Assembly (NCBI GenBank): GCA_964371145.1
Contig: CAYJKO010000002.1
Location: 14,330 to 78,329 of the forward strand
Origin: an uncultured Muribaculaceae bacterium
GTDB lineage: Bacteria; Pseudomonadota; Alphaproteobacteria; Rs-D84
Direction: 5' to 3'
DNA: 64,000 nt
Notes under the pieces: generated by a model
What the model was told of the DNA's origin: nothing
What the model saw: the letters and a program-made list of their open reading frames with translations, nothing else
Database searches by the model: none
Program-made: the position numbers and the translations under genes
Shown here: piece after piece, positions 3,222 through 60,335 of the stretch
Layout: the number at the start of each line of letters is the position of its first letter
How positions within the stretch are numbered: the first letter of the stretch is position 1

Positions 3222-4739
3222 ATGTTTACAATAAAAGGAAAAACAGGTGATTGGGAATTGGTAATTGGGTTAGAAACTCATATTGAAATCCTGTCAGAAT
3301 CTAAATTATTCAGCGGCGCAAGCGCGGATTATAACCCAAGCGTATCGCCAAATACCCAAGCTTCTTTCATCGATACCGCAATGCCGGGTATGTTACCTGT
3401 TTTAAATAAATATTGCGTAGAACAAGCAATCAAAATGGGACTGGGATTAAATGCTGAAATTTCCAAAGTCAGCAAATTTGCACGTAAACAATATTTCTAC
3501 CCTGACCTGCCACAAGGTTATCAGATTTCTCAACCCGCAGAAGAACCACCGGTTGTGGGGCGCGGATGGATTGAAATTATGGACGATAACGGCAACCCTA
3601 AAAAGATTAATATCGAACGCGCGCATTTGGAACAAGACGCAGGAAAATTAAAACACGATGCTCATCCGACTAAATCTTTTGCGGATTACAACAGAACGGG
3701 CGTCGCATTATTGGAAATCGTTACGTTTTTAGATATTAAAAATCCTGAAAACAATTCATATATATCATCCCCGATTGAAGCCGAAAATTATCTGCGTGAA
3801 ATTCGCGAAATTGCACGCGCACTGGGCGTATCACACGCGAACATGGAAGAAGGTTCAATGCGCGCGGACGTAAATGTGTCAGTTCGCCGCGCGGGTTCAA
3901 ATGAATTTGGAACCAGAACAGAAACAAAAAATATGGTATCTTTTAAATTTATTAAATCTGCAATTGAATATGAGGCCCGTCGTCAAATCGAAATTATCGA
4001 ATCGGGTGGCACAGTTTCACAGGACACAATGCGATACAATCAATCAACTGGAGAAACATCCGTTATGCGTTCCAAAGAAGACGCGTTAGATTACAGATAT
4101 TTCCCAGATCCGGATTTATTACCTTTAATCATCACGGACGAACAAATTGAAAACGTGCGTAAAAATATGCCTGAATTGCCATCTGCTACACGTAAAAGAT
4201 ATATTGAATCATTCGGATTATCTGAATATGATGCAGCGCGTCTGACAGAATCTGTTGCAATATCCAAATGGTACGAAACGTCTGTCGGCGGCGAAATCCG
4301 CCGTGCAAAACCGATTGCAAACTGGTTGATTTCCGAATTATTTGCACACCCTGAAAACTGGTCTGTGGACAATAAACCCGAACAAACAGAATTCAGAATT
4401 ATAACCCCGTCTGATTTGGCCGAATTGGTTGATATGATATCTGCAAATGATATCAACGGTAAGATGGCAAAAGACATATTTATCAAAATGTTGGATGGTG
4501 AAATTGGAACACCACGCGAAATTGCCGATAAATTTGGTTTAAAACAAATGTCAGATTCCGGCGCGATTGAGGCAGCCGTTGATGATATAATTGCAAACAA
4601 CGCATCCCAAGTAGAACAATATAAATCTGGCAAAGTCGGATTGATGGGATTCTTTGTAGGCCAAGTTATGAAAGCAACAGGTGGCGCGGCCAACCCTGGA
4701 ACGGTTAATGAATTATTAAAGAAAAAATTAGGAGAATAA
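3222..4739 (+). CDS. gatB: Glu-tRNA(Gln) amidotransferase subunit B
   Basis: 505 aa. N-terminal GatB catalytic region (ELVIGLETHIEI..) and C-terminal GatB/YqeY helical domain (..VGLMGFFVGQVMKATGGAANP..). Confidence 0.9.
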   Translation: MFTIKGKTGDWELVIGLETHIEILSESKLFSGASADYNPSVSPNTQASFIDTAMPGMLPVLNKYCVEQAIKMGLGLNAEISKVSKFARKQYFYPDLPQGYQISQPAEEPPVVGRGWIEIMDDNGNPKKINIERAHLEQDAGKLKHDAHPTKSFADYNRTGVALLEIVTFLDIKNPENNSYISSPIEAENYLREIREIARALGVSHANMEEGSMRADVNVSVRRAGSNEFGTRTETKNMVSFKFIKSAIEYEARRQIEIIESGGTVSQDTMRYNQSTGETSVMRSKEDALDYRYFPDPDLLPLIITDEQIENVRKNMPELPSATRKRYIESFGLSEYDAARLTESVAISKWYETSVGGEIRRAKPIANWLISELFAHPENWSVDNKPEQTEFRIITPSDLAELVDMISANDINGKMAKDIFIKMLDGEIGTPREIADKFGLKQMSDSGAIEAAVDDIIANNASQVEQYKSGKVGLMGFFVGQVMKATGGAANPGTVNELLKKKLGE

Positions 4740-4939
4740 AATGGCAAAAACAATCAAAATTATAAAAATGTTGAACTATAATATAATCACAGGTACAACA
4801 TACGGAACTGTTGAAATATCATTGAACGAAACAATTATCCAGAACACCCCAACTGCGCGCGCTTTTGAAATTGCAAAAACAAAATCAAACATTTTGAAAA
4901 AACGTAACAGAACTTTAAACATACGAAATAAATAAAATT

Positions 4940-6244
4940 ATGAAACAATTTTTTATACAAACTTTTGGTTGCCAAATGAACGTGTACGATTCAATTCGTA
5001 TTACGTCTATGTTAATTGACACGGGCTGGGCAAAATGCGACGTGGTCGAAGATGCCGATTTAATCATTTTAAACACCTGCTCTGTTCGCGAAAAAGCAAC
5101 GAACAAGGTTTTTTCCGCATTGGGACGAATTCGTCGTAAAAAAAAGCCTGACGCATTGTTTGGTATTGTCGGATGTGTTGCCCGCGAAGCCGGCGCAGAT
5201 GCTTTCCGACGTATCCCTGAATTGAATTTTGTTCTGGGACCACAAAGTTATCATAAATTGCCAACAATTTTGGAAAATCCAGATTCCAGATTATTAAATA
5301 TCGATCTGGGCGGATTGGAAAAATTTGACGAATTGCCACGGCAAAAAACATCCGACACGGTTGCATTTATTCCAATCCAAGAAGGATGCAATCACGTCTG
5401 TACGTATTGCATTGTGCCGTACACACGCGGGCGTGAATTATCACGACCATTCAATGATGTTATGGCAGATACAATGAATGCGATAAATAATGGCGCTATG
5501 GAAATATATTTTCTGGGTCAAAATGTCAACGGCTATAAATTCACAGATGAAAATGGAAAATTATTTACTTTGGCAGATTTAATAATCGAAACTGCAAAAC
5601 AAGAATCCGTTCATCGCATACGTTTTACGTCCAGTTATCCAACCGAAATGACAGACGAATTAATTGATTTATTCCGTACAGAACCAAAATTGATGCCTCT
5701 TGTTCATCTGCCAATCCAAAGCGGCAGCGCAGATGTTTTAAAAAGAATGAACAGACCATATTCATTAGAATTATATAAAGATATAATTGATAAATTACGT
5801 ATCGCAAATCCAAACATCAAAATTTCATCTGATTTTATAGTTGGTTTCCCCGGTGAAACCGACGCAGATTTTGAACAAACGATGGAAATTGTAAAATACG
5901 TTGGGTATGTAAATTCTTATTCTTTTAAATACAGCCCTCGTCCGCATACGGCAGCGGCATTGATGACAGATCAGATACCTGAAAAAATAAAAGCAGCTCG
6001 TTTGAAAATTTTGGATGATTATTTAAACGTTTTACAACGTGAATTTAATGAATCTTTTATCGACAAAATCATACCTGTTATGTTTGAAAGCATCGACCGT
6101 ACCGGTAATTATTTAATAACCAGAACGCCCCACGGCCAGCAATGCTTGATACCAAAGCCTGATTTCAAATTACCACCCGTTATAAATGTTAAAATAACAT
6201 CTGGGAACAAATCTACTTTACGCGGTGAAATTGTTATCGATTAA
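4940..6244 (+). CDS. miaB: tRNA-i6A37 methylthiotransferase (radical SAM MTTase)
   Basis: 434 aa. N-terminal MTTase domain (FIQTFGCQMN), radical-SAM CxxxCxxC (CTYCIVPYTRG), C-terminal TRAM domain. Confidence 0.85.
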   Translation: MKQFFIQTFGCQMNVYDSIRITSMLIDTGWAKCDVVEDADLIILNTCSVREKATNKVFSALGRIRRKKKPDALFGIVGCVAREAGADAFRRIPELNFVLGPQSYHKLPTILENPDSRLLNIDLGGLEKFDELPRQKTSDTVAFIPIQEGCNHVCTYCIVPYTRGRELSRPFNDVMADTMNAINNGAMEIYFLGQNVNGYKFTDENGKLFTLADLIIETAKQESVHRIRFTSSYPTEMTDELIDLFRTEPKLMPLVHLPIQSGSADVLKRMNRPYSLELYKDIIDKLRIANPNIKISSDFIVGFPGETDADFEQTMEIVKYVGYVNSYSFKYSPRPHTAAALMTDQIPEKIKAARLKILDDYLNVLQREFNESFIDKIIPVMFESIDRTGNYLITRTPHGQQCLIPKPDFKLPPVINVKITSGNKSTLRGEIVID

Positions 6245-7782
6245 AACACAGTGTTCGCACCGAAATTAAACCTGTGACCTATTTTGTTATGCGGCATATA
6301 ATCTGCCGCATACATAAAATTCACACCAAACTTATCCGCAACAGAAAAATAATTATGTTTGACACCAAAAGAATAAATATTATTGGTCTGTAAGATTAAA
6401 AACGATTCGTATTTATTTATCGCGCCACCGTATTGCTTTTCGTATTTTAAATTTATACCTGCCCTTGCATAAACATCTTGCTCATTATTATTTAAAATAC
6501 TATACCGATTAAAACCTGAACCTATAAATGGGTGCAAATCTACATTTCCCGACTTGAAAGAAACGAATCCAAAATCTCCAGACATATAAACAGAATCAGC
6601 CGCCACGTTTAAAATCAAATCACCTGAATTGAATACACCATCTGTTTCATATTTTGCATAATTATAACCGATTACACCATCAAACCAATTCGTATCATGC
6701 TTATAGCCTAAATGTAATGCGCCACCATAAATATCACCAACATAATCATTATATTCATCCGAATTTTTAAAGCTTCCAAAATGTCCCGATAATCCAATGC
6801 TGAAATTTCCGAAATTTAAAAACGATTTTGCGTTTAAAATATTCATATTTATATCATCTGACATTATATAATTTGCGTCCATTTCAAAATCGTCTTTTTC
6901 TTTATAATCTTTAAAACCCAAAACCATATTATTATTAAAAGTTTTCAACGGATTCAATAAATTTAAAGGATTAAACAATACTGATTTTGCCATAATTGAA
7001 TTCATTTCTGTTGTACAACTGGCGTTATCCATCGCATTTATAAAACCGGCATTAACATTTGATGTGCGCATAGAATTCAAAACAGAACCAGTCGTAACAC
7101 CCAAAACCTTTTTATAATCGGTTTCTCTGACGATATTCAAAACCAAATTTCCGTCCTGTACGACAGATTCCGCCGTATACAACGGATTTAAATTTAAAAC
7201 ATTAATATCTATATCCGCGCCAGACAATGAAACATTTTTAACAATAATTCCGTCTTTTTGTTCGTCCATATTTAATGTTAAATTTCCTTCGATAATTATA
7301 TTTTTCAGATCCAAAACAACATCCATAAAAAGACTGGTATCTTTTAATATTAATTTATCTGCATTTGTAACATTACCCATTATTTCAGATGTTTTAATAT
7401 TATTATTTCCCGTGACTTTAACAGAATAATTCAAATCATCATCAACTGAAATGCTTCCCAAAGATTCTTCAGAATCGATTATTTGTATTAAATTCGAATT
7501 TGTGTTGCCTGAAAATACAGACCCTATATTTCCATAATTATAAATATTTAAATCACAACCGTCACAAATATGAAAATCGGCGGACGTTATATTTGCAAAG
7601 TTCTTTATAGTAATAGAATTTTCAGAATATAAACTTTCCGCTGTAACAATTGAATTTTCTGCTATATCAATAGACCTGTCGAAGCCATATGAAACACCAA
7701 CGGCATATATAAAAGCATCTGCCGCATGCGCCAAAGTTGACGAAACAATTCCTATAAAAGCTATTATTAATTTGTTATCCAT
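6241..7782 (-). CDS. outer-membrane beta-barrel / autotransporter-like surface protein
   Basis: 513 aa. Signal peptide (..TLAHAADA), repetitive N/S/G-rich passenger region. C-terminal region has alternating aromatic/hydrophobic residues and ends ..GANTVF (C-terminal Phe), typical of OM beta-barrels. Confidence 0.5.
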   Translation of the reverse strand: MDNKLIIAFIGIVSSTLAHAADAFIYAVGVSYGFDRSIDIAENSIVTAESLYSENSITIKNFANITSADFHICDGCDLNIYNYGNIGSVFSGNTNSNLIQIIDSEESLGSISVDDDLNYSVKVTGNNNIKTSEIMGNVTNADKLILKDTSLFMDVVLDLKNIIIEGNLTLNMDEQKDGIIVKNVSLSGADIDINVLNLNPLYTAESVVQDGNLVLNIVRETDYKKVLGVTTGSVLNSMRTSNVNAGFINAMDNASCTTEMNSIMAKSVLFNPLNLLNPLKTFNNNMVLGFKDYKEKDDFEMDANYIMSDDINMNILNAKSFLNFGNFSIGLSGHFGSFKNSDEYNDYVGDIYGGALHLGYKHDTNWFDGVIGYNYAKYETDGVFNSGDLILNVAADSVYMSGDFGFVSFKSGNVDLHPFIGSGFNRYSILNNNEQDVYARAGINLKYEKQYGGAINKYESFLILQTNNIYSFGVKHNYFSVADKFGVNFMYAADYMPHNKIGHRFNFGANTVF

Positions 7783-7889
7783 AACGGATAAAATTATAAC
7801 TCACAGGATTTTATTCACAAGAAATAATTAATAAAAATTCCCGACATTTTTTGTCGGGAATCAAAAACAATAAAGACTGTTTATAAAAC

Positions 7890-8453
7890 CTACATTTTAC
7901 AAGGTTTAATCATACCCCATGCGGCTTTATATCCGTTATCGCGGGTAAATATGATTTTATTAAATGCGGTATCTTCTAATGTCATATCCTCAATCCATAA
8001 ATCTTTTGATAATACGCCATGACCATCTGACATAACGGTCGGTGTATCTGCATCAATATATTCTATCTTGCAATCTGATTTATTTGCAGTTTTACATTCA
8101 TATTCTGCGAATTGAATTTCATATGGCACACCAACTCTCATATCTTTTACGTGGAATTTAGCCATCACACCATTTTTTTCGTTGTGCATTTTAACTGTTC
8201 CTATTTCAACAGCTTTGCCGTGTCCGTTTTTAGAATATATCACAGCATGGGTACATTTTACGTCTTTCATATCCATATCTTTCATATCATGATGCATCAT
8301 TTTTTTATCATGCATATTTTGTTTTGCGTGCATTTCGTGTTTTTGATGATGTTCTGACGCGTGTTTTTTATCACCATGATGGCAAGCCGCCAAAACAAAC
8401 ATTGAAAATAAAACGGATGCGAACAATCCTGTGCGTTTAAATAAATTTTTCAT
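7890..8453 (-). CDS. secreted His/Met-rich putative metal-binding protein
   Basis: Start chosen at MKNLFKR.. (GGAG RBS 8 nt upstream), giving 187 aa. Signal peptide, then a His/Met/Asp/Lys-rich low-complexity stretch (HHGDKKHASEHHQKHEMHAKQNMHDKKMMHHDMKDMDMKD) and a Cys-containing globular C-terminus. Confidence 0.5.
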   Translation of the reverse strand: MKNLFKRTGLFASVLFSMFVLAACHHGDKKHASEHHQKHEMHAKQNMHDKKMMHHDMKDMDMKDVKCTHAVIYSKNGHGKAVEIGTVKMHNEKNGVMAKFHVKDMRVGVPYEIQFAEYECKTANKSDCKIEYIDADTPTVMSDGHGVLSKDLWIEDMTLEDTAFNKIIFTRDNGYKAAWGMIKPCKM

Positions 8454-8594
8454 AGATTTCTCCTTTTTTCTTATGAACAATATTATTATATCGCAAAAAA
8501 AGCCTGTTTTCGTTAAGTTATACTTCCTAAATCCCTTGTATAAATTCCTATGAACTGGTACAATGGCTTGAAAATAACAAAAGGACTTTTTAAT

Positions 8595-9503
8595 ATGTTG
8601 CTGGGGATATTGGCCGGTTTTGGAACAACGATTATACATTCTGTATCAAATATATTTGATGCATACATCGTTGAAAAATTTTTCAAAAAAGTTTCAACCG
8701 CTGTTTTCTTTAATGGCATTACTAATATTATCGCGATACCGATTATATTGATGTTCGGGATGCCACAGATGCTGACCGTTGAAGCTTTTGTTTTCATAGC
8801 TATTGCATCTTTAATAGAGGTTTTTTATCAATTTCCATATTATACCGCACTGAAAAAAACCGATACTTCCGTTGTAGTTGCAATGTTTTCATTGGGCAAA
8901 TTATCTATCCCGATTATGGCATATTTTATGTTGGGCGAACAATTGGCACCCATGCAATACTTTGGATTTTTTATCGTAATATTTGCAAATTTATTAATGA
9001 ACCTTACCATTTCAAAAGGCGGGAATAAGAAAAAGCTGTTATTAAATGCAGGATTTATATTAATGCTGATTGTATCCCTTGTCTGTTCTTTCCAGGCCAT
9101 CGTATCTAAAAAAGGATTAATCGAATCGGATTGGGTTACATTTATGTTTTGGTACACAATAATAACCAGCGGGCTTTCTTTTACATTATTGTTTCCATCA
9201 TCCAGCAGATCGGACATAAAAAAATCGACTCCCGTATTTTTCAAAAATTGGAAAACATTTTTTGGTATGGAACTGGCGAATCAAACGGCCGGCATGTTGT
9301 CAAAATATGCATTGATGGTTTTGCCTGTGATGATTTTAAAATCTTTAACATCGACCCAACCTATTTTCTGTTTGATATCAGGATACATTTTATATAAATT
9401 ATTTGGCGACAGATTCAAAGAAAATTTTGATAAAAAAAGCATTCGACGAAAATTGATATTTTTCGCAGTAATTATATTTGGCGTATATTTAACATTAGGA
9501 TAA
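8595..9503 (+). CDS. DMT-superfamily (EamA-like) membrane transporter, paralog 1
   Basis: 302 aa from ATG at 8595 (AAGGA RBS). About 10 predicted TM helices arranged as two half-repeats. Clearly paralogous to the adjacent 9511..10419 ORF. Confidence 0.5.
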   Translation: MLLGILAGFGTTIIHSVSNIFDAYIVEKFFKKVSTAVFFNGITNIIAIPIILMFGMPQMLTVEAFVFIAIASLIEVFYQFPYYTALKKTDTSVVVAMFSLGKLSIPIMAYFMLGEQLAPMQYFGFFIVIFANLLMNLTISKGGNKKKLLLNAGFILMLIVSLVCSFQAIVSKKGLIESDWVTFMFWYTIITSGLSFTLLFPSSSRSDIKKSTPVFFKNWKTFFGMELANQTAGMLSKYALMVLPVMILKSLTSTQPIFCLISGYILYKLFGDRFKENFDKKSIRRKLIFFAVIIFGVYLTLG

Positions 9504-23329: not shown

Positions 23330-24079
23330 TTACCCCACATACAAAACCGAACCGAATAAAACCGCGAAAAAGAAACATACCGATCCGCCGATTACGAACA
23401 AATGCCAAACCGCGTGAGAAAATTTCAATTTACGCCATAAATAAAACAAAACACCGATTGTATAAGATAATGCGCCCGCCAAAATAAACCACAATCCAAC
23501 GGGGTGAACCGTTTTAATCATAACAGGCAAAACAAAAATCAAAGCCCAACCCATAATTAAATATAATGCGACCATCCATTTCGGTTGATGTTTTGGACTG
23601 CGAATTTTCATATACGCGCCAAATATTGCAATTGCCCACAATATTCCAAACAAAGTCCAACCGACAATCCCGCGCATATTTACCAAACAAAACGGGGTAT
23701 ATGTTCCGGCAATCAAAGCATAAATTGCAACACTGTCCCATACTTCGAAAAAGCTTTCTGATTTTTCGCCTATCATTGCATGACACATTGTGCTGCCGAA
23801 ATATAATGTAAACATTGTTGTTCCAAATATAGCGGTAGATACAACCGCCCACGGATCACCTTTGATAACGGCATATGCAACCAACAAAGTCAATCCCGCA
23901 ATTGCCAAACCGATTCCAATACCGTGGGTTATTATATTTAAAACTTCTTCGCCCTTTGTCGCGGGTCTTTCCCATCTGAATAAACCGGTCTTTTGCAAGA
24001 TTTTTAACAATCCGTTTGCTCGATTATCGGATTTAATATTTTTTAATTTTTGTTTTTTAATTTTTTTCACAGTCGTCAT
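23330..24079 (-). CDS. hemolysin III family (PAQR/YqfA) membrane protein
   Basis: Seven TM helices with conserved His-containing motifs (..HGIGIG.., ..HAVWHLFVIGGS..). Start taken at MTTVKKIKK, avoiding overlap with gltX. Confidence 0.65.
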   Translation of the reverse strand: MTTVKKIKKQKLKNIKSDNRANGLLKILQKTGLFRWERPATKGEEVLNIITHGIGIGLAIAGLTLLVAYAVIKGDPWAVVSTAIFGTTMFTLYFGSTMCHAMIGEKSESFFEVWDSVAIYALIAGTYTPFCLVNMRGIVGWTLFGILWAIAIFGAYMKIRSPKHQPKWMVALYLIMGWALIFVLPVMIKTVHPVGLWFILAGALSYTIGVLFYLWRKLKFSHAVWHLFVIGGSVCFFFAVLFGSVLYVG

Positions 24080-24080
24080 T

Positions 24081-25685
24081 TTATATCGCCTTTTTAATTC
24101 TGGATTCAACCCTGTCTTTTCCCATAACGCACATCACAGAATATAAATCTGGCGCATTTGTACGACCTGTTAAGGCGACCCGTAAATTCATAGCAACGTC
24201 ACCTGATTTCATATCCATATCAGTTGCGATTGCGACAATTTTTTGCCACCACGTGTCTTTATCATCGGTATCATTATATGTATTTAAAAATGCTTTTAAA
24301 CAGTCCCCATTAAATTCATATTCAGAATTTGAAACAAATAAATCGTCCCAGAAATAAGAAATTTCATCCATTGTTTGTTTCATGCAAATAAAATCTTTAC
24401 GGATACGTTTTGGATTGTCACGTTCGATTGCCAATATATTTTTTAAATATTCGTCACACCCAACAATTCTTTGTTTCCATTCATTTCCATAATTTTGAAT
24501 CCAATTTTTTGCGGCTCCGAATAAATCGCCGATAGACATAGATGCGATATATTCTTTTGCCCACCAATCTAATTTTTGCATATTAAACAAAGCCGGACTG
24601 GTCGGAATTTTTTTAATTTTTAATGGAAAATTCCAAATATCTGTATCTGGTTTTTTTAATTTTTCTTCTTCAAATCCACTGCATACAATATTATACAAAT
24701 AATTTAATACAGCCGTGCGTGGATATCCAGATTCCAAATAAAAAGCAACGTTTGCTTCTGGATCAGTTCTTTTAGATAATTTACGTGAATTACCGGTATT
24801 TTCATCCAATTTATTAATTGTTGCAACGTGAATATAATCGGGCGCCACCCATTCCATCATGCGAAATAATTGCAAATGCAAATTCAAAGACGGCAACCAT
24901 TCTTCGCCACGTTGAACCAGATTGGTTCTCATATAATGATCGTCCACCAAATGCGCAAAATGATATGTTGGCAAACCATCATTTGATTTAATCAAAACGA
25001 TATCTTCGTTATTTTCTGGCAAAGCCAATCGGCCGCGTGTTTTATCATTGAAAAATATTTTATTATCCGGATTTCCAACGGAATATAATCTGACGCTTGG
25101 GATTTCACCGGCGTTTAATCTTTCAGTGATTTCAGATTCTTCGATATTTCTGTATTTTGCAAATTCACCATAAATACCGGTCATTTGACCAGATAATTTT
25201 TGCCCCGCGCGAATTTCTTCCATTTCAGAAGACGTTAAAAAGCAAGGATACGCCAAACCACGTTCCAACAAATCGGCGGCAACACTGTGATAAATATCGC
25301 GGCGTTCGGATTGAACATATGGTCCATATGCGCCCTGTTCATCTCCATTCAAATTCATACCCTCATCCGGATTTAACTCAAAATAATCGGCAGATTTTAA
25401 AATCAAATCAACTGCGCCATCTACTTCGCGTTTGGTGTCTGTATCTTCAATACGCAACATAAACACACCATTTGATTGAGAAGCCAATTTTTTCGCAATC
25501 AACATTTGATACAAAGTCCCCAAATGCATTAATCCCGTTGGGCTGGGTGCGACACGTGTTACATATGCACCATCTTCTAAATTGCGCGGCGGATACATCT
25601 TTTCCATATCATCCAAAGTCCATTTTGGCTTTGTGCCTAAAATTCTTTCTATTAAATTGCGTGAAATACCTGGTCTCATTTTCAT
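24081..25685 (-). CDS. gltX: glutamyl-tRNA synthetase (class I; longer than typical)
   Basis: 534 aa. HIGH-region RVAPSPTGLMHLGTLYQMLIA and KMSKS-like KLSKR. The C-terminal anticodon-binding region is extended relative to the ~470-aa norm. Confidence 0.8.
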   Translation of the reverse strand: MKMRPGISRNLIERILGTKPKWTLDDMEKMYPPRNLEDGAYVTRVAPSPTGLMHLGTLYQMLIAKKLASQSNGVFMLRIEDTDTKREVDGAVDLILKSADYFELNPDEGMNLNGDEQGAYGPYVQSERRDIYHSVAADLLERGLAYPCFLTSSEMEEIRAGQKLSGQMTGIYGEFAKYRNIEESEITERLNAGEIPSVRLYSVGNPDNKIFFNDKTRGRLALPENNEDIVLIKSNDGLPTYHFAHLVDDHYMRTNLVQRGEEWLPSLNLHLQLFRMMEWVAPDYIHVATINKLDENTGNSRKLSKRTDPEANVAFYLESGYPRTAVLNYLYNIVCSGFEEEKLKKPDTDIWNFPLKIKKIPTSPALFNMQKLDWWAKEYIASMSIGDLFGAAKNWIQNYGNEWKQRIVGCDEYLKNILAIERDNPKRIRKDFICMKQTMDEISYFWDDLFVSNSEYEFNGDCLKAFLNTYNDTDDKDTWWQKIVAIATDMDMKSGDVAMNLRVALTGRTNAPDLYSVMCVMGKDRVESRIKKAI

Positions 25686-25721: not shown

Positions 25722-26369
25722 GTGTTTATGAAAATGCAAGAAATAAGAACTTTTGGTCGCGTTCACGGCAAAAAAATATCGAACCGACAACAATATCTGG
25801 TCGACAATGTTTTACCAGACGTTTTACCAAACGTAAATTGTGAAAACAATATTTTGGAAATCGGTTTTGGAAACGGAGAACATTTACGCGAAATATCAAT
25901 TGAATTTCCGAATAATACAGTTATTGGTGCAGAACCTTTTATGAATGGTGTTGCGTCTCTTTTGTCTTCTATATCAAACGAACAAAATGAAATATTGGAC
26001 GACCATAAAAACATTCGCATATGGGCGGATGACGTTCGTAAAATTTTAAATCCTGAAAATAATGAATTCATAGATATCAAATTTTCAAAGATTTTTGTCC
26101 TGCATCCCGATCCTTGGCCAAAGGCTCGTCACGAAAAACGCCGCTTGTTAAATTCTGAATTTTTGAAATTATTATCATCTCGTCTGATGACAGATGGCGA
26201 AATTATAATTGGAACAGATCATTGGGGTTATTACGATTGGGTAATAGAACAATTACAAAAAACCGATTTGAAAATTAAATCTGACAAAATGGACATTATC
26301 CAAACCAGATACCAACAGAAAAACAAAGCAAAAACAGAAAATCCGAAATATTTGATTTTATCTAAATAA
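25722..26369 (+). CDS. trmB: tRNA (guanine46-N7)-methyltransferase
   Basis: 215 aa. SAM-binding LEIGFGNGEHL and the TrmB motif VLHPDPWPKARHEKRRL. Confidence 0.8.
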   Translation: MFMKMQEIRTFGRVHGKKISNRQQYLVDNVLPDVLPNVNCENNILEIGFGNGEHLREISIEFPNNTVIGAEPFMNGVASLLSSISNEQNEILDDHKNIRIWADDVRKILNPENNEFIDIKFSKIFVLHPDPWPKARHEKRRLLNSEFLKLLSSRLMTDGEIIIGTDHWGYYDWVIEQLQKTDLKIKSDKMDIIQTRYQQKNKAKTENPKYLILSK

Positions 26370-26393: not shown

Positions 26394-27047
26394 TTATGGT
26401 TTTAAAACAAATCTGACTTTGTTTGAAATGTCGGGATTATTTTTATTAATCAACCACCAAACATTTCTGACGCGCGGCGCATCATTACCAACATTAAAAT
26501 GAATTTCTTTAAAATCATTTGGATTTAATGCGTTCAACAAAGTATATATACGTCCCGCAAATATAGCCTTTTTATTATGCAAACTTTCAAAGCAAATAAA
26601 ATCTGGGTTTAACACCCCTATTTTTTCCAACAAAGATTCTTTCAAAGCCATAATATCATATTCATCCATTTTTATACACAACCCAAATTCTTTGTTTTTA
26701 AAAATATCGTCTTTAATTGGCAAAATCCCAGATATAAAATTATCTAAATTTTTTGCATCAACATTAAATCGAACCGAGTCCGCACCATTTTTAAAACAAG
26801 TTATAACATCGCCCAAAACAAAGCTGATATCTGAATCATAATCAAAACAAACCATAATTTTGGTCGAAGATTTTTCTAACCAAGCCCATAAAGATTCCAC
26901 AAATTCAGGTTTTGATATTATATATTTAATATTATTTTCATTTGCAATCGCAGACAGCCGCATTAAATCCAAGGCTTCTGTATAATACACAGAATCCCAT
27001 ACAATTAAATCTTTTATTTCGGTTAAAATATCATTTTTTTCAATCAT
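26394..27047 (-). CDS. hypothetical protein (weak DeoC-like TIM-barrel resemblance)
   Basis: 217-aa ORF with no signal peptide. It shows only weak pattern similarity to class I aldolase-like segments (..NIKYIISKPEFV..). Divergently oriented from the 27.1 kb locus. Confidence 0.4.
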   Translation of the reverse strand: MIEKNDILTEIKDLIVWDSVYYTEALDLMRLSAIANENNIKYIISKPEFVESLWAWLEKSSTKIMVCFDYDSDISFVLGDVITCFKNGADSVRFNVDAKNLDNFISGILPIKDDIFKNKEFGLCIKMDEYDIMALKESLLEKIGVLNPDFICFESLHNKKAIFAGRIYTLLNALNPNDFKEIHFNVGNDAPRVRNVWWLINKNNPDISNKVRFVLKP

Positions 27048-27103
27048 TTCCTTTTTACTTTATCATATTTATGATAAAATTAAAAGAAAGAAGGAAAAAA
27101 AAT

Positions 27104-27907
27104 ATGCATAAATTATTATTAGGAATTTTATGGTTGTCGTCTACATCTTTAATCGGCAGCGCATTATTAAATTATAAATATTCATTTAATGTATTCGAAA
27201 TCGATCATTGGGTTTATTTGGGTCAAATACAGGCTCAAAATGCAAACGACATTTCAAATGGTTTTTATATAACGCTAATTTCCATCACGATTATTATTTT
27301 GTTTGGCTTATATATAATATTACACCACAAACATAAATTACAATCCGCGCCTAAACAAATTATTTTGCCATTACCGCAAACTTATTCAAAAGAAACCGAA
27401 CAAACAAACAATATAATTCAAATGGAACGCCCACCCAGATTAAACACATCGCCCGGCATGATCCATCAAAGAACCCAACCAATTATGAATGTGTCACCAA
27501 AAAACATAGCTGGCGAAATGACAGATATTTTTAAATCTAATAATTATACGGTTAAAACGTCTCCTAAAATTGGGCAATCCCGCCCTGATTTATTTGCAAT
27601 CGGGTCTAATGAAACTTTATGGATAGGTTTAAATAACGCAACCAATGACACAATGGCCGCAATGAAAAATGTTTTAAATGAAATATTTACAGAAGTTTTA
27701 GAAGATATAGAAATCGACATAAAATTATTTAACGTTAATTCAAACGTGTCTAACCCAGACAATGATTTTTTATATTTTTCTAACATAGATAATTTAAAAA
27801 ATTATTTAACACCAAACAAAAGTGTTGATTCGGACATAGAAAAAGATTTTGAAACATTAATAGATCATTTGATTAAATATTTAAATAATACGAACACCGG
27901 GGCATAA
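27104..27907 (+). CDS. membrane-anchored hypothetical protein; possible N-terminal component of a toxin locus
   Basis: Start at MHKLLLGILWLSSTSL.. (AAGGAA RBS). N-terminal hydrophobic segment plus a second TM (GFYITLISITIIILFGLYIIL). The C-terminal about 150 aa contain a RPDLFAIGSNETLWIG segment reminiscent of PD-(D/E)xK nuclease-fold cores (D..E, Lys not obvious). Its stop lies 1 nt before the next ATG. Confidence 0.45.
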   Translation: MHKLLLGILWLSSTSLIGSALLNYKYSFNVFEIDHWVYLGQIQAQNANDISNGFYITLISITIIILFGLYIILHHKHKLQSAPKQIILPLPQTYSKETEQTNNIIQMERPPRLNTSPGMIHQRTQPIMNVSPKNIAGEMTDIFKSNNYTVKTSPKIGQSRPDLFAIGSNETLWIGLNNATNDTMAAMKNVLNEIFTEVLEDIEIDIKLFNVNSNVSNPDNDFLYFSNIDNLKNYLTPNKSVDSDIEKDFETLIDHLIKYLNNTNTGA

Positions 27908-27908
27908 A

Positions 27909-28412
27909 ATGATAAGCAAACATTTGGCGACTAAAAAATTAGACGAATATTTATTGACCGGGTTACCGATTCGCGAATTCAATGTCAAACCATGTTCAGT
28001 TGAAAAAGATTGGTTTGCAAAATACATTCGTGTCCGACAAGAATTCATAGAATCTTTGGCAGACAACATGGAAGATTTAATATTTTTTAATTTCCCCCAA
28101 GATGTTTTTATGGATTTATTAATGGGCTCAAAAATTCCTGAAAACATTTCTATTCGTCTGCGCGTACCTCTTGTTTGGGGCGGAAAATTAGAAATAGACA
28201 ATATGTTTTTATGCAGAACTTTTAATGATTCTCATAATATGGATAAATTTATTATTTCACAAAGCGCTTTTCAAACGGTATGGTTACCGGACCCTGCAAA
28301 AAAAGTTTATATGTCCACAAATATAGGTGGCGCAGGAGATGGCGGAAATTCCGCCGAAGACAGAATGACTCAAATCGCGATGCAACAAGCCGCTTCAAAG
28401 GGAAGGATTTAA
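27909..28412 (+). CDS. candidate HNH/EndoVII-fold toxin domain protein (variant core)
   Basis: 167 aa. The segment RLRVPLVWGGKLEIDNMFLCRTFNDSHNMDK aligns position-by-position with the HNH core pattern ([28 protein letters not shown]: GG, acidic residue, N-L, LC, N). The canonical first His position is Arg/Val here. Translationally coupled to the ORFs on both sides. Confidence 0.4.
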   Translation: MISKHLATKKLDEYLLTGLPIREFNVKPCSVEKDWFAKYIRVRQEFIESLADNMEDLIFFNFPQDVFMDLLMGSKIPENISIRLRVPLVWGGKLEIDNMFLCRTFNDSHNMDKFIISQSAFQTVWLPDPAKKVYMSTNIGGAGDGGNSAEDRMTQIAMQQAASKGRI

Positions 28413-28415
28413 AAA

Positions 28416-28853
28416 ATGAACGGGAAAGAATTTTCAGACTTTATCAAATCAAACAATGTAAAAATAATACCGCCTTTTGAAGATCGCGAATTAATTTTAA
28501 CAAACGCCGGTCTGCAAAAAATGAGAGCCGCGATATTACCGAATGATTTAATTGAATTGTATAAAAAAGTCGGTGGTTTTAATTTAAACGGTGCATACGT
28601 TTTTGGACCGAAAGAATTTTTACGACAAAATACATCCGCCGTACCGTCTATTATGGAAATCAACAAACAATTGACCGATTTTCAATGTATGCGAGGAAAA
28701 ACCGTATTCGCCAGAAATGATTTATTTTGGTTTGCATTTGATGTGAACGGTGAATTTTTTATGTTAGATAATTTAACATTAAAACCATTAAAAAAATACG
28801 ATAATTTATTTAATGCAATATGCGACTGTTTAACCGTGGGAAGATTAAAATGA
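28416..28853 (+). CDS. SUKH-1 (SMI1/KNR4-like) immunity-protein candidate
   Basis: 145 aa. Carries FED..L...AILPNDLIELYKKVGGFNLNG (the LP.dY..fl...nGg signature) and the C-terminal FWFAFDVNGEFFMLD (f.iA.D..G..f.lD), as in SUKH-1 immunity proteins. Sits directly after the nuclease-like ORF. Confidence 0.5.
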   Translation: MNGKEFSDFIKSNNVKIIPPFEDRELILTNAGLQKMRAAILPNDLIELYKKVGGFNLNGAYVFGPKEFLRQNTSAVPSIMEINKQLTDFQCMRGKTVFARNDLFWFAFDVNGEFFMLDNLTLKPLKKYDNLFNAICDCLTVGRLK

Positions 28854-29062
28854 AAAAATTATCCGTAGTATTAAATGGACACCAAACAAGCATTTCATTA
28901 GAAGAAATTTTTATTGAAACATTAAAAAATATCGCAAAAAAAGAAAACACATCTATTGCGTCCATTATAAACAAAATAGATTCCGCACGCACGGGCAATT
29001 CTAATTTATCATCTGAAATCCGCATATGGATTATGAATTATTTATTACACAACAAAAATTGA
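28850..29062 (+). CDS. ribbon-helix-helix domain protein (COG4321-like)
   Basis: Start at MKKLSVVLNGHQTSISLEEIFIETLKNIAKKENTSIASIINKID.. (70 aa). Matches the alphaproteobacterial small RHH family pattern (S..L.GH.TS..LE..F...L...A...g.S...li..iD). Overlaps the previous stop by 4 nt (ATGA). Confidence 0.5.
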   Translation: MKKLSVVLNGHQTSISLEEIFIETLKNIAKKENTSIASIINKIDSARTGNSNLSSEIRIWIMNYLLHNKN

Positions 29063-29077
29063 TGTATCCGGCAAAAT

Positions 29078-31030
29078 TCAAGACTTATAAGATTTTCGCA
29101 CACAATAAAATACATATATCAATATTGATGAAAATGCAAATATAATTAACATCATTAAATCACGTCCAATTGAACGATATATTGTATTGTGCCCCTGACC
29201 TATTTCACCATCTAAAACGCCAATTGCTCCAATTGGCAATTGCGCCATTATTTCACCATTTGATGACACAAATGCGCTGATGCCGGAAAAATTAGCACGC
29301 ACAATCGGTAATCCTGATTCTATTGCATATCTGCGCACCATATCCAAATGTTGAAAACTTCCCTGGGTTTTACCAAACCAAATATCATTTGTAATGTTTA
29401 TTATAACTTGCGGTGTTTTGTTTGAATTTTTCGGGATTAACGAATCGGTAAAAACAATTTCATAACATATAGCGGGTGCAAAGTTGAATGATATATCATC
29501 ATCTAACTTTAATTCTATTATCTCTGGGCCAACTCCGCTGGATAATTGACCAGGTGTTGGAATTATATCGCCAAAGGGTCTGTATTCGCCGAATGGAACC
29601 AAATGTGATTTATTATATATTTTTTCTATATGCCCGTTTTTATCCGCAACAATCATAGAATTATATAAATGTCCATTTTTGTAACTGGTTGCACCCGTTA
29701 TTATTGTTGTATTTAATATTTTTGCCATGGGCAAATAATCATCTGTTACAACATATGGATATGTTGTTTCTGGAAAAACAATTAAATCAAATTTTTTATC
29801 ATCCGAATTTGACATAGATATTAATTTTTGAACATTACGTTCGCTTGATTGTCTTAAATGTTGCGGCAAATGACTTTCTTTGTCTTCGGCAGAAAAAGAC
29901 GGTTGCACTATTCTGACAGATATTTTTTCTTCGGGTGATGCGGTGTTTGATTTTTCAATATTTGCGTGCCCCACAAAAACGCCTATGACAATTAAAGATA
30001 AAAATATCACAAATGTTATTTTATTTTGTCTGTTACGTTTCATAATTAAATCTACCACACTTGCAATTAAACCAATTAAAACAAAAGACAAACCCAATGC
30101 GCCCCACATCGACATAGAATTAGATAACAATGGGCACGGCAAAGAAATATTTGCAAATGGATTCCATGGGAAACCTGTCAACAACCATTCGCGTAACCAT
30201 AAAACAAATGTCCAAAAAAATGCGAATAAAATTGATGAACCCGGTAAAAAACGCCGTGCACGCGCCATCAATACAAATGGAGTTGAAAAAATTATACCCC
30301 CGAAAAAAGCAATACCAATTAATGATGGAATTGTCCATATTGCAAATTGAGCCGCCAATTCGGGAATTACATATATTGAATTCAACATCCACCAAAACAT
30401 AGACAAAGCATATATGGATGCAAATGGCATAATTTTTACGAATGATTTATAAACAGAATTTTTATCATCATCTTTAACGGTTAAATAATACGCCCCACCT
30501 ATTCCAATTAAAGATAAAAACCACATATTATATGGCGCAAATCCAAGAGATGCAAATCCACCGCATACGGCTAAAATTAAGATACGCATCCAATCTTTGT
30601 TTTTTTCTTTATATGGATTTTTTATGTTTAATTTCTTTAATATTTTAATCTCTGCTGTCTCCATTTTGTTTGCATCTTTATCGTCCAAATGGTCAAAGCC
30701 CAATAAATGCAAAGCGCCATGTACAATTAAATGAATGGTGTGATTTTCTATCGTTTTATTTTGTTCTGCGGCTTCACGAATAACCGTATCAATTGATATA
30801 TATACATCACCCAACAATTCATCATCGCCCATTTCAAAAGACAAAACATTTGTCGGTTTATCAAATCCCCGATATTTTTTATTTAATTTTCGAATCTCGG
30901 CATCATTTGTAAAAACTATTGATAGTTCAGCATTTTTATTATGCGCGATATCTATTTTTGATATAATTTTATCTGTATCAATATTATATTCATTCCATCT
31001 TTTATCGGTAATATCTATATACGCTTTCAT
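29078..31030 (-). CDS. ybeY-lnt: fusion protein: rRNA maturation RNase YbeY (N-terminal) and apolipoprotein N-acyltransferase Lnt (C-terminal)
   Basis: 650-aa continuous ORF. Residues about 1-140 are YbeY (ELSIVFTNDAEIRKLNKKYRGFDKPTNVLSF.. HTIHLIVHGALHLLGFDHLDD, the H3xH5xH zinc motif). The rest is Lnt: multi-TM N-domain, then a CN-hydrolase domain (..LIVFPETTYP.., ..NKSHLVPFGEYRP.., ..CYEIVF..). Confidence 0.75.
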   Translation of the reverse strand: MKAYIDITDKRWNEYNIDTDKIISKIDIAHNKNAELSIVFTNDAEIRKLNKKYRGFDKPTNVLSFEMGDDELLGDVYISIDTVIREAAEQNKTIENHTIHLIVHGALHLLGFDHLDDKDANKMETAEIKILKKLNIKNPYKEKNKDWMRILILAVCGGFASLGFAPYNMWFLSLIGIGGAYYLTVKDDDKNSVYKSFVKIMPFASIYALSMFWWMLNSIYVIPELAAQFAIWTIPSLIGIAFFGGIIFSTPFVLMARARRFLPGSSILFAFFWTFVLWLREWLLTGFPWNPFANISLPCPLLSNSMSMWGALGLSFVLIGLIASVVDLIMKRNRQNKITFVIFLSLIVIGVFVGHANIEKSNTASPEEKISVRIVQPSFSAEDKESHLPQHLRQSSERNVQKLISMSNSDDKKFDLIVFPETTYPYVVTDDYLPMAKILNTTIITGATSYKNGHLYNSMIVADKNGHIEKIYNKSHLVPFGEYRPFGDIIPTPGQLSSGVGPEIIELKLDDDISFNFAPAICYEIVFTDSLIPKNSNKTPQVIINITNDIWFGKTQGSFQHLDMVRRYAIESGLPIVRANFSGISAFVSSNGEIMAQLPIGAIGVLDGEIGQGHNTIYRSIGRDLMMLIIFAFSSILIYVFYCVRKSYKS

Positions 31031-31031
31031 A

Positions 31032-32636
31032 TTATTTTTCTTTTAATTTTTGTTTTAAATTGTCTAATTTTTTATCAAAACTTTTTTTATTCTTTTTTGA
31101 AATTTTAAAGTTTTGTTTGGCTGCATTTAATTCTTTTTCGGCCGCAACATATTCTTCTTTATCCATTAAATATTTCGCTTTTTTTAAACGCAGTTCTGCG
31201 GCGGAAAAATACAATTCTGCTTTTTCTTCATCTTCGAATTCTGCGCCAGACAAATTAAATAAAGCGCGTCTTATTTCTATCATTGCTGAATCCAATTTAT
31301 TTTCTTTGACTGCGCCAAAGAAATTTGTAGCATTATCGATTTTATTATCAATCAAATCTAAAACGGAATCTTTTTTTATTTTGTTAATTTGAGATTTTGA
31401 AACATAAAAGTCTGATGGCACTGATTGATTTTCCAAACACGATATCATATATTCCCACCCCGGAATAGTTTTTTGATTTAATCTTTCACGCAAAGTCATA
31501 TCTGATTTATGTTGACGTCCCGACATCATCTTTTCGATAAATTCTTTACTGAAATCAAATTCATCATTTTTTATAACCTCGCGATAATTTATTGCAAAAA
31601 AACCATCTATATATGCATCTAAAAATTGTTTTGAATTAATTTGTCCTGTTGCCAATGCGGCGCATACCCAACGTTTATTAATTGTACCAGGATATTTGCT
31701 TTTGGCACCTGCCCCATACATAAAGGAATTTGCTTTTTGTTCATCAGACTTATTTCCGTTAAATCCATTTTTGCAAATAGATTTTAAATGACCCGGCAAT
31801 TGATATCCCGCTATGCATAAAGCCAGATAATCATTAATTGAAATGGGATCGGACAAATTATTTTTTAACAATCTGAACAAACTGGCCTTATCTGTTTGCC
31901 CCATTGACGTATATGTCGTAGATGTACAATAATCAAATCCCAATTTTTTACCAATGGTATCATTTACATTTATATTCGGTAAAGATTGGCCGGGACGTCC
32001 ATTTTTTCTAGAAATTTGTCTTTCGAAATTTATTTCATTATTTTTATCCACAGGCCAAAAATATGTAACACCCGGACCATATGTATAAACATTTTCTGCC
32101 CGATTTACTTTTGGTGTTTTATAATATGTTTCGGCGTACAAAATCGCAGGATACAAAACATCAAACAAAGCGGCACATTGCCCCAGAAAATCTTCTGAAT
32201 TTGGATCCAATATTTTTTCATTAAAATCTATATTTCCTTTTTCTGTTTTCTTTACCTCGGTTTTAATCTGCGAAGCCATATCCTTGGCAGAATCCGCCGT
32301 ATAGAAGCCTGCGAACATTAATAACGGAATAGAATAATACAAAATATGAGCAGATAAATTCGGATGTTTTTTGGCAAAATATTTTAATCCAACGGATTTG
32401 TCCATATCGGGGTTTGTTTTTGAAAATACATCCTCTAATTTTCTTAAAATTTTATTATCAACCGCCAATAAACGGGTCGCCCAAAACATAAATTGAGTTA
32501 TTCCTGCGACACCCATTGCCGATTTTTTTATAACTTCTCCGCCAATATTTTTAGCCTTTAACTTACCGACATTTTTTCTGAAATTTCTTGCCAAGTTTTC
32601 CGGTTTTTTTACATTTTTTGTAAATTTATCTGACAT
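31032..32636 (-). CDS. hypothetical protein with C-terminal coiled-coil
   Basis: 534 aa with no recognisable catalytic motifs. A short N-terminal hydrophobic segment. C-terminal charged coiled-coil/TPR-like stretch (..EEKAELYFSAAELRLKKAKYLMDKEEYVAAEKELNAAKQNFK..). Its stop lies 1 nt from the ybeY-lnt start. Confidence 0.45.
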   Translation of the reverse strand: MSDKFTKNVKKPENLARNFRKNVGKLKAKNIGGEVIKKSAMGVAGITQFMFWATRLLAVDNKILRKLEDVFSKTNPDMDKSVGLKYFAKKHPNLSAHILYYSIPLLMFAGFYTADSAKDMASQIKTEVKKTEKGNIDFNEKILDPNSEDFLGQCAALFDVLYPAILYAETYYKTPKVNRAENVYTYGPGVTYFWPVDKNNEINFERQISRKNGRPGQSLPNINVNDTIGKKLGFDYCTSTTYTSMGQTDKASLFRLLKNNLSDPISINDYLALCIAGYQLPGHLKSICKNGFNGNKSDEQKANSFMYGAGAKSKYPGTINKRWVCAALATGQINSKQFLDAYIDGFFAINYREVIKNDEFDFSKEFIEKMMSGRQHKSDMTLRERLNQKTIPGWEYMISCLENQSVPSDFYVSKSQINKIKKDSVLDLIDNKIDNATNFFGAVKENKLDSAMIEIRRALFNLSGAEFEDEEKAELYFSAAELRLKKAKYLMDKEEYVAAEKELNAAKQNFKISKKNKKSFDKKLDNLKQKLKEK

Positions 32637-32718
32637 ATTTTTTCGCTTTGTTTTTTCTATTATTATATTATGATGTAATTATATCATAAATATAACAAAA
32701 GTAAAATACGAACAAAAT

Positions 32719-60270: not shown

Positions 60271-60335
60271 TTTTTATCCTTTCTTTTTCTTATATCTATC
60301 ATACAAATGACAGGATTTTTTTGCAACAACAAAAA

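Follow-up and report, generated by a model that had tools for sequence, protein, structure and literature searches.

A core operon of Rs-D84 Alphaproteobacteria encoding a candidate domesticated pseudo-nuclease and its SUKH partner

We examined a 64,000-nucleotide (nt) stretch of DNA, referred to here as the window (contig CAYJKO010000002.1 of GenBank assembly GCA_964371145.1, forward-strand positions 14,330 to 78,329), from an uncultured bacterium of the alphaproteobacterial order Rs-D84. The window contains a compact operon of four open reading frames (ORFs), ORF1 to ORF4. With moderate confidence, we read this operon as encoding a domesticated heterodimer of a pseudo-nuclease (ORF2) and a SUKH protein (ORF3), which would be tethered by ORF1, autoregulated by ORF4, and derived from a type IV coupling-protein module that it may still serve. 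Judging from sequence comparisons, ORF2 and ORF3 appear to descend from an HNH toxin and a SUKH immunity protein of the type represented in Escherichia coli by the YhhZ C-terminal domain (YhhZ-CT) and YrhA. Whereas toxin-immunity pairs are generally regarded as mobile weapons that evolve fast, the two partners seem to have undergone domestication together in this case, and a co-domesticated toxin-immunity pair forming a VirD4-linked core operon was not found in the literature searched.

All four ORFs lie on the plus strand. ORF1 (27104 to 27907) encodes a 267-amino-acid (aa) inner-membrane protein of an orphan family with two predicted transmembrane helices; ORF2 (27909 to 28412) encodes a soluble 167-aa pseudo-nuclease apparently derived from a His-Me finger (HNH) protein; ORF3 (28416 to 28853) encodes a 145-aa protein with a SUKH (SMI1/KNR4) fold of the YrhA type; and ORF4 (28850 to 29062) encodes a 70-aa ribbon-helix-helix (RHH) protein of the RHH_4 family that is translationally coupled to ORF3. 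The junctions are tight: 1 nt separates ORF1 from ORF2, ORF3 starts 3 nt past the ORF2 stop, and ORF3 and ORF4 share a 4-nt ATGA overlap. This layout, together with the flanking genes trmB and ybeY-lnt, had been described in an earlier note made from the sequence alone, and we found the positions and the peptides quoted there to be as given. ORF1 to ORF4 are genuine genes rather than chance ORFs, since each has dozens of same-length homologues, they are adjacent and collinear in 84 to 85 of the 85 related Rs-D84 loci used for locus comparisons, and their ratios of nonsynonymous to synonymous substitution rates (dN/dS) are 0.08 to 0.17. Hydropathy analysis located two hydrophobic segments in ORF1 (residues 4 to 22 and 49 to 76), which agrees with its earlier description as a membrane protein, and none in ORF2 to ORF4.

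Ancestry of ORF2 and ORF3

In ORF2, a helical region at the N terminus precedes a degenerate core (SIRLRVPLVWGGKLEIDNMFLCRTF), and a conserved tail (GGDGGN.(A/S)EDR) has been added at the C terminus. Searches of Pfam, NCBIfam, PADLOC, and PHROGs, with the single sequence and with a profile, returned nothing, and a Foldseek comparison of the predicted ORF2 model with the Protein Data Bank (PDB) gave no significant match. Sequence-profile searches of the PDB with alignments of ORF1, ORF2, ORF3, and the VirD4-linked relatives described below (Form B) produced only noise, with the pyocin AP41 DNase appearing at an E value of 0.4. An exhaustive HMMER search with the ORF2 alignment recovered 74 proteins, among them proteins of 180 to 433 aa in which the ORF2-like domain is C-terminal and follows an MWDWS motif and a P/Q-rich linker; no Pfam domain was detected in these longer relatives. 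All 38 distant ORF2 relatives tested by BLASTP matched residues ~272 to 387 of E. coli K-12 YhhZ, the best match reaching 62 bits with 39% identity over 113 aa. YhhZ, which is annotated as a putative endonuclease, contains an Hcp domain and a weak Pfam HNH match, and it constitutes group 32 in a systematic classification of His-Me fingers (PMC5714182). Hcp-ET1, which carries an HNH-DNase domain, is an experimentally shown type VI secretion system (T6SS) effector with a cognate immunity protein (reviewed in PMC6730261).

The earlier note had pointed to an HNH-like stretch in ORF2. We consider this stretch to be a genuine His-Me finger remnant, probably homologous, by way of the intermediates above, to the Hcp-linked toxin domain of YhhZ; the proposed ancestry is upheld, but the catalytic dyad expected of an HNH nuclease is gone. 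In the combined alignment, the core of YhhZ reads NVHHKLSLDDGGTNDFENLVLIENEPYH, and that of the VirD4-linked relatives reads NVHLKVPFEYGGTxDFSNLxLIQTHPYHxEIH. At the dyad itself, NVHHK in YhhZ aligns with NVHLK in Form B and with SIRLR in ORF2. The second histidine of the HH pair is the general base, by analogy with H103 of colicin E9 and H840 of Cas9. This residue is replaced by L or I in the VirD4-linked relatives and is missing in every alphaproteobacterial member; in ORF2, R83 stands in place of the first dyad histidine, and L84 stands in place of the general base. An alignment of 32 ORF2 sequences has 29 invariant columns, none of them a histidine; they include N98, at the position of the structural loop Asn, together with N110 and D112 of the helix, and H107 and H109 vary. 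Because both histidines of the catalytic dyad have been lost, ORF2 is most likely not a canonical HNH DNase. The C-terminal tail conserved in the alphaproteobacterial family, which takes the form GGDGGNATEDR or SGGGKxxxDRSVYAGF...GR, is not present in YhhZ.

ORF3 has the characteristic alpha+beta SUKH fold, and 37 of 43 ORF3 orthologues match the NCBIfam YrhA family (NF038335). The SUKH assignment in the earlier note holds to this extent, but the scores of ORF3 itself are below the curated thresholds of both Pfam (SMI1_KNR4, 19.2 versus 25.4 bits; SUKH_6, 19.0 versus 27 bits) and NCBIfam (YrhA family, 44 versus 55 bits). ORF3 also matches the ORF3-like proteins of two other loci, L090 (E value of 1e-13) and L086 (hhalign, 95%); the L090 protein, which belongs to Form B, scores above the YrhA-family cutoff (66.6 versus 55 bits). 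Direct comparison of the ORF3 profile with K-12 YrhA by hhalign was not significant (E value of 0.54), and K-12 YrhA has no Pfam match. As judged from these matches, the chain from ORF3 to YrhA runs parallel to the chain from ORF2 to YhhZ, and both relationships are transitive, since the direct comparisons are not significant and intermediates are needed. The ORF2/ORF3 pairing is kept in all related loci with enough sequence, and ORF3 is presumed to be a tight binding partner of ORF2.

Inheritance and selection of the operon

A scan using one genome per species identified ORF2 relatives in 264 species representatives. Among the 80 of these that were listed, nearly all were labeled Alphaproteobacteria, Rickettsiales, or Candidatus (Ca.) Enterousia, and three were labeled Muribaculaceae; the source, where given, was rumen, feces, or gut, and two were single chromosome records of 717 kb (OZ246409.1) and 959 kb (OZ007020.1). 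Genomes of the order Rs-D84, which includes Ca. Enterousia, are mostly <1 Mb, and the lifestyle is probably partner-dependent (PMC12306168). The guess in the earlier note that the DNA came from a reduced symbiont fits these close relatives. Three of the metagenome-assembled genomes compared (L008, which is the 717-kb chromosome OZ246409.1, as well as L042 and L050) are labeled "uncultured Muribaculaceae bacterium" yet carry the alphaproteobacterial operon with its usual neighbors, and these three labels look wrong.

We found 45 other homologues of ORF2, all of them stand-alone proteins of 151 to 170 aa with 46 to 57% identity, and 78 other homologues of ORF3, mostly of 144 aa; homologues of ORF1 were weaker (28 to 34% identity). 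Conservation extends to the neighbors hlyIII, gltX, trmB, orfM217, and ybeY-lnt, which are likewise maintained around the operon in the 85 loci. Median identity to the window was 49% for ORF2, 46% for ORF3, and 57% for ORF4, compared to 50% for ybeY-lnt and 60% for trmB, and dN/dS (NG86, 47 pairs) was 0.082, 0.084, and 0.078 for ORF2, ORF3, and ORF4, compared to 0.075 for gltX and 0.080 for trmB. No second copy of ORF2 or ORF3 was found within 5 kb on either side in any locus, and the G+C content (0.29 to 0.37) was not anomalous relative to the flanks. An origin as a mobile island was ruled out by the fixed synteny and normal base composition. Based on this synteny, the presence in 264 species representatives, housekeeping-level dN/dS, single copy number, and lack of a compositional island, the operon is a core, vertically inherited feature of the order Rs-D84, unlike a mobile cassette. 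Since the catalytic dyad has been lost and yet both ORF2 and ORF3 are under housekeeping-level selection, an important, non-toxic function for what had been a high-affinity toxin-immunity interface is implied. Both genes are maintained at this level of selection in all members examined of the order, even though its genomes have shed most biosynthesis.

The same data bear on the function that the earlier note had assigned to the locus, namely that of a classical polymorphic-toxin or contact-dependent cassette, mobile and strain-variable, that is used for interbacterial conflict. The tandem arrangement of an HNH-derived domain and a SUKH gene speaks for such a cassette, as does the tight coupling of the ORFs, but ORF2 is a stand-alone protein of 167 aa with no trafficking or pre-toxin domain, its catalytic histidines are lost, and the locus is syntenic and fixed (84/85 loci, with ORF2 relatives across the 264 species representatives), without extra copies or compositional anomaly. 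In addition, the PADLOC anti-phage defense models matched none of ORF1 to ORF4, orfM217, or a 534-aa ORF located nearby. Because there is no trafficking domain, polymorphism, or mobility, and because the dyad is lost and selection is at the housekeeping level, a polymorphic-toxin function is not supported, and we consider this explanation highly improbable.

The VirD4/TraG link, ORF1, and the control region

The operon occurs in two forms. Form A, the type found in the window, consists of ORF1, ORF2, ORF3, and an RHH_4 gene without VirD4; Form B, which is found in other gut Alphaproteobacteria, consists of an ORF1-like gene, VirD4/TraG, an ORF2-like gene, and an ORF3-like gene. In Form B, the distant ORF2 relatives sit directly downstream of a VirD4/TraG gene (PF02534, E value of 1e-41; NCBIfam VirD4/TraG models). 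A metagenome scan yielded 44 Form-B loci, with VirD4 immediately upstream in 35 and the remaining 9 ending within ~210 nt; an ORF3-like gene was present downstream in 41/44, and an ORF1-like gene was present upstream of VirD4 in 20/44. The genes flanking Form B are housekeeping genes (pyrG, pckG, uvrB, uvrC, and fadL) and not virB genes. Form A is also present in the more distant lineages L138 to L140. One Form-A locus and one Form-B locus both have uvrB downstream (61% identity), which suggests that the two forms arose from one ancestral locus. That these genes are consistently found around virD4 in sister lineages suggests a connection with type IV secretion or with DNA transfer. Literature searches on Rs-D84 secretion systems and on SUKH proteins combined with VirD4 returned nothing relevant.

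Two further arrangements were observed. In L091, two proteins of 582 and 704 aa with type IV pilin-like N termini (4945 to 8818, minus strand) are encoded just upstream of an ORF2-like/ORF3-like pair, and this pair has neither a VirD4 gene nor an ORF1-like gene. Small predicted lipoproteins of 94 to 101 aa are encoded beside the VirD4/ORF2-like/ORF3-like module in L090 (6276 to 6581), L092 (10017 to 10301), and L094 (~859).

The linker of ORF1 carries the invariant motif RPPRLN, and the C-terminal domain of the protein, of alpha/beta type, is predicted to be cytoplasmic. No family match was found for ORF1 in Pfam, NCBIfam, PADLOC, or PHROGs, and no sequence match was found in the PDB. Its profile does match two genes of other loci: in L090, the one preceding VirD4 (hhalign, 93.8%; E value of 1.7e-7), and in L139, the one preceding the ORF2-like gene (hhalign, 91.6%). 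For a PD-(D/E)xK or NERD domain in the ORF1 C terminus, the former raised as a possibility in the earlier note, there was no consistent Pfam match among 41 members, a single one of which touched the REase model MTES_1575 (E value of 0.035), and the ORF1 consensus LWIGxV lacks E-x-K. In L090, two tandem ORF1-like paralogues (354 and 352 aa; 4145 to 6271) precede VirD4. These paralogues and the L088 and L139 homologues contain an insertion of ~25 to 40 aa that is missing from Rs-D84 ORF1 and that spans about 25 columns in the hhalign alignments of the 352-aa L090 paralogue and the L139 protein; these longer versions resemble a NERD/PD-(D/E)xK core, as judged by eye only.

ORF4 was correctly recognized in the earlier note as an RHH protein: it matches RHH_4 (PF13467) over positions 2 to 67 of 67, with an E value of 8e-21 and 74.2 bits against a cutoff of 25. 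It directly follows ORF3 in 84/85 loci and also in the distant Form-A loci L138 to L140, and the RHH_4 gene is missing from the VirD4-containing form. We presume that ORF4 is an autoregulator of the operon; literature searches on PF13467 returned nothing relevant. Upstream of ORF1, a perfect 16-bp palindrome, TATCATATTTATGATA (27061 to 27076), lies within the 56-nt gap between ORF1 and the divergent gene orfM217, and it is the sole exact match to this sequence within the window. The palindrome consensus, TATCAYAAATATGATA, is positioned at -29/-30 from the ORF1 ATG in 70/80 Rs-D84 loci, an enrichment of ~45-fold relative to the remaining sequence of these loci. The right arm of the palindrome partly covers an extended -10 box (TGnTAyAAT), and conservation extends across the entire intergenic region of ~45 nt between the orfM217 and ORF1 starts. 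These features fit a bidirectional promoter with a candidate operator, to which ORF4 would bind. Promoter and terminator predictions did no better than chance. Copies of the palindrome with two mismatches are found upstream of mgsA/rarA (32682 to 32697) and upstream of recA (60297 to 60312); both copies are intergenic, but a shared regulon is doubtful, since no more than 4/21 related loci retain the one upstream of mgsA.

In our favored reading, ORF3 would bind ORF2 as an obligate heterodimer, as suggested by the toxin-immunity ancestry of the pair, and ORF1, with its two transmembrane helices and cytoplasmic domain, would tether this complex to the inner membrane, as suggested by the conserved operon order. 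The complex would serve as a non-cleaving accessory module that binds nucleic acid or protein. Its original job would have been with a VirD4/TraG type IV coupling protein, since the same three genes bracket virD4 in sister lineages. ORF4 would bind the palindrome over the extended -10 box and thereby autoregulate the operon and the divergent orfM217. A more specific version, which is speculative and in our judgment unlikely, casts the products of ORF1 to ORF3 as a complex that serves a type IV coupling protein as substrate receptor or adaptor. Such a complex would have been assembled from an inactivated HNH toxin and the SUKH immunity protein that went with it, and in Rs-D84 it would have become an essential, RHH-regulated core machine with virD4 relocated or lost. 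Under this version, Rs-D84 bacteria might use the complex to exchange DNA or protein with the cells on which they live. We infer all of the physical interactions, the lack of toxicity, and the adaptor role. The findings yield a testable operator/regulator pair and give an entry point to the dealings of these gut bacteria, which are uncultured and probably partner-dependent, with other cells.

Four results weigh against the favored reading. First, tblastn with VirD4 found no match, either in the window or up to 5 kb from the operon in 85 Rs-D84 relatives. Second, direct hhalign comparison of the ORF2 profile with YhhZ was not significant (E value of 0.17). Third, a mirror-tree test did not single out the ORF2-ORF3 pair, as the partial correlation was 0.34 for ORF2-ORF3 and 0.41 for ORF2-ORF1; values involving a flanking gene (0.21 for ORF2-ybeY-lnt and 0.43 for ORF4-ybeY-lnt) likewise gave no discrimination. 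Fourth, ORF2 has retained a set of invariant polar residues (R83, N98, N110, D112, N147, D151, and R152), given which it may have a non-canonical enzymatic or toxic activity.

The main alternative is that the pair is still active: ORF2 would be toxic, either by means of non-canonical residues or because it binds nucleic acid tightly, and ORF3 would neutralize or chaperone it. Such a pair could be kept by addiction or as a core type IV effector, with the C-terminal tail acting as a VirD4 signal for delivery into partner or host cells. The toxin-immunity ancestry, the immunity-type gene directly downstream of ORF2, and the many invariant polar residues are all in keeping with this explanation, as is the conserved tail that YhhZ lacks. 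Moreover, the layout of the relatives is effector-like, with the ORF2-like domain C-terminal after a variable, low-complexity N terminus and beside virD4, and bacteria-killing effector/immunity pairs of type IV secretion systems are known in Xanthomonadales. However, the general-base histidine is missing in all alphaproteobacterial members, and ORF2 lacks both dyad histidines. No XVIPCD or other secretion domain was detected, and no virD4 is near the operon in the Rs-D84 loci. There is also no diversification, no orphan immunity gene, and no horizontal spread, and conflict systems do not typically show the housekeeping-level dN/dS seen for both genes. We regard an active pair as possible but doubtful.

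A further explanation is that four functionally unrelated, lineage-specific genes share one transcript through genome compactness. In that case, ORF4 would be an RHH regulator general to Alphaproteobacteria, and ORF2/ORF3 would represent a relic undergoing decay. Genes are packed tightly in reduced genomes, the RHH_4 family was defined independently of this operon, and the co-evolution signal is not operon-specific, all of which would be expected under this explanation. It conflicts, however, with the occurrence of the ORF1/ORF2/ORF3 trio in very distant lineages and in two contexts (VirD4 or RHH_4), with the retention of both members of the ancestral pair in every locus with enough sequence, and with strong purifying selection, which speaks against a relic. 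We consider this explanation quite unlikely, and we continue to favor the domesticated heterodimer.

Beyond the four ORFs, orfM217 (26394 to 27047, minus strand) encodes a conserved 217-aa protein and is located between trmB (25722 to 26369) and ORF1. Searches of Pfam, NCBIfam, PADLOC, and PHROGs returned zero matches for it, and it adjoins ORF1 divergently in 78/85 related loci. Because a conserved palindromic control region is common to orfM217 and ORF1, orfM217 is probably a fifth member of the locus. ORF1, ORF2, and orfM217 each define a protein family without prior annotation. On the other flank, a 650-aa ORF (29078 to 31030, minus strand) fuses YbeY (an rRNA maturation RNase) and Lnt (apolipoprotein N-acyltransferase). 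A tblastn match to the fused ybeY-lnt is found beside the operon in 80/85 Rs-D84 loci, and gene calls of six related loci (listed as L001, L003 to L005, and L140) contain the same fusion at 596 to 678 aa, with YbeY and Lnt domains both present. The 534-aa ORF (31032 to 32636, minus strand) belongs to no family, has a Lys-rich, coiled-coil-like C terminus, and evolves fast (21 to 31% identity); some relatives lack it or have another gene in its place, such as one for a TPR protein in L001. Lastly, the gltX ORF (24081 to 25685) and an HlyIII-family ORF with a TTG start (23330 to 24109), both on the minus strand, overlap by 29 nt as listed (24081 to 24109), which is probably a start-codon calling issue for hlyIII.

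Comparison with known systems

The closest counterpart is E. coli YhhZ/YrhA. Through Form-B relatives, the C-terminal domain of YhhZ can be aligned with the ORF2 family (best score, 62 bits), the YrhA family matches ORF3 and its relatives, and in both cases a toxin-type gene is followed by a SUKH-type gene, with yhhZ and yrhA overlapping by ATGA. YhhZ differs in that it has kept the HH dyad and carries an Hcp fusion that serves T6SS delivery, and IS1E interrupts yrhA at that E. coli locus. In ORF2, R-L occupies the positions of HH, Hcp is absent, and there is an extra conserved tail; ORF2 is also a vertically inherited core gene. The Hcp-ET1/ETI1 T6SS pairs are related to YhhZ/YrhA. A broader comparison group is formed by HNH, WHH, and colicin-DNase toxins with SUKH immunity proteins, such as the RhsP-WHH/RhsPI complex (PDB code 8bd1) and Bacillus subtilis YobL/YobK; unlike ORF2, these toxins are C-terminal domains of large, secreted polymorphic proteins and are active, variable, and horizontally mobile.

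Among type IV systems, the X-Tfe/X-Tfi effector/immunity pairs of Xanthomonadales kill bacteria and are recognized by VirD4 through the XVIPCD. The ORF2-like/ORF3-like pair of sister lineages resembles them in its position directly downstream of virD4 and in its conserved C-terminal region. In contrast, ORF2 and its relatives match no Pfam family (which includes XVIPCD if that domain is in the Pfam release used), the histidine that would act as general base is absent, the pair shows conservation instead of diversification, and virD4 lies outside the operon in the lineage of the window. The Legionella DotL-DotM-DotN-IcmS/W coupling complex offers a parallel, in that the gene for the coupling ATPase is likewise directly preceded by one for a membrane protein with a cytoplasmic domain and is accompanied by genes for small soluble partners. 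The likeness to that Dot/Icm complex is by analogy only and implies no relationship in sequence or fold; the VirD4 protein here is of the IVA (TraG/VirD4) type.

For its regulation, the operon resembles type II toxin-antitoxin operons with autoregulating RHH antitoxins, in that it combines an RHH protein with a conserved palindrome over the -10 region. It is unlike them in that the RHH gene is last and is not paired with the toxin-like gene, whose neutralizer-type partner is instead the SUKH protein, and in that this is a non-mobile operon of four or five genes. For the fate of ORF2, the nearest parallels are the dead His-Me fingers of the Smad MH1 domain and the ENPP nuclease-like domain, in which the scaffold is likewise kept for binding under continuing selection after loss of the catalytic histidine. 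Those proteins are eukaryotic and have retained no immunity partner, whereas here the SUKH partner appears to have been domesticated along with the toxin.

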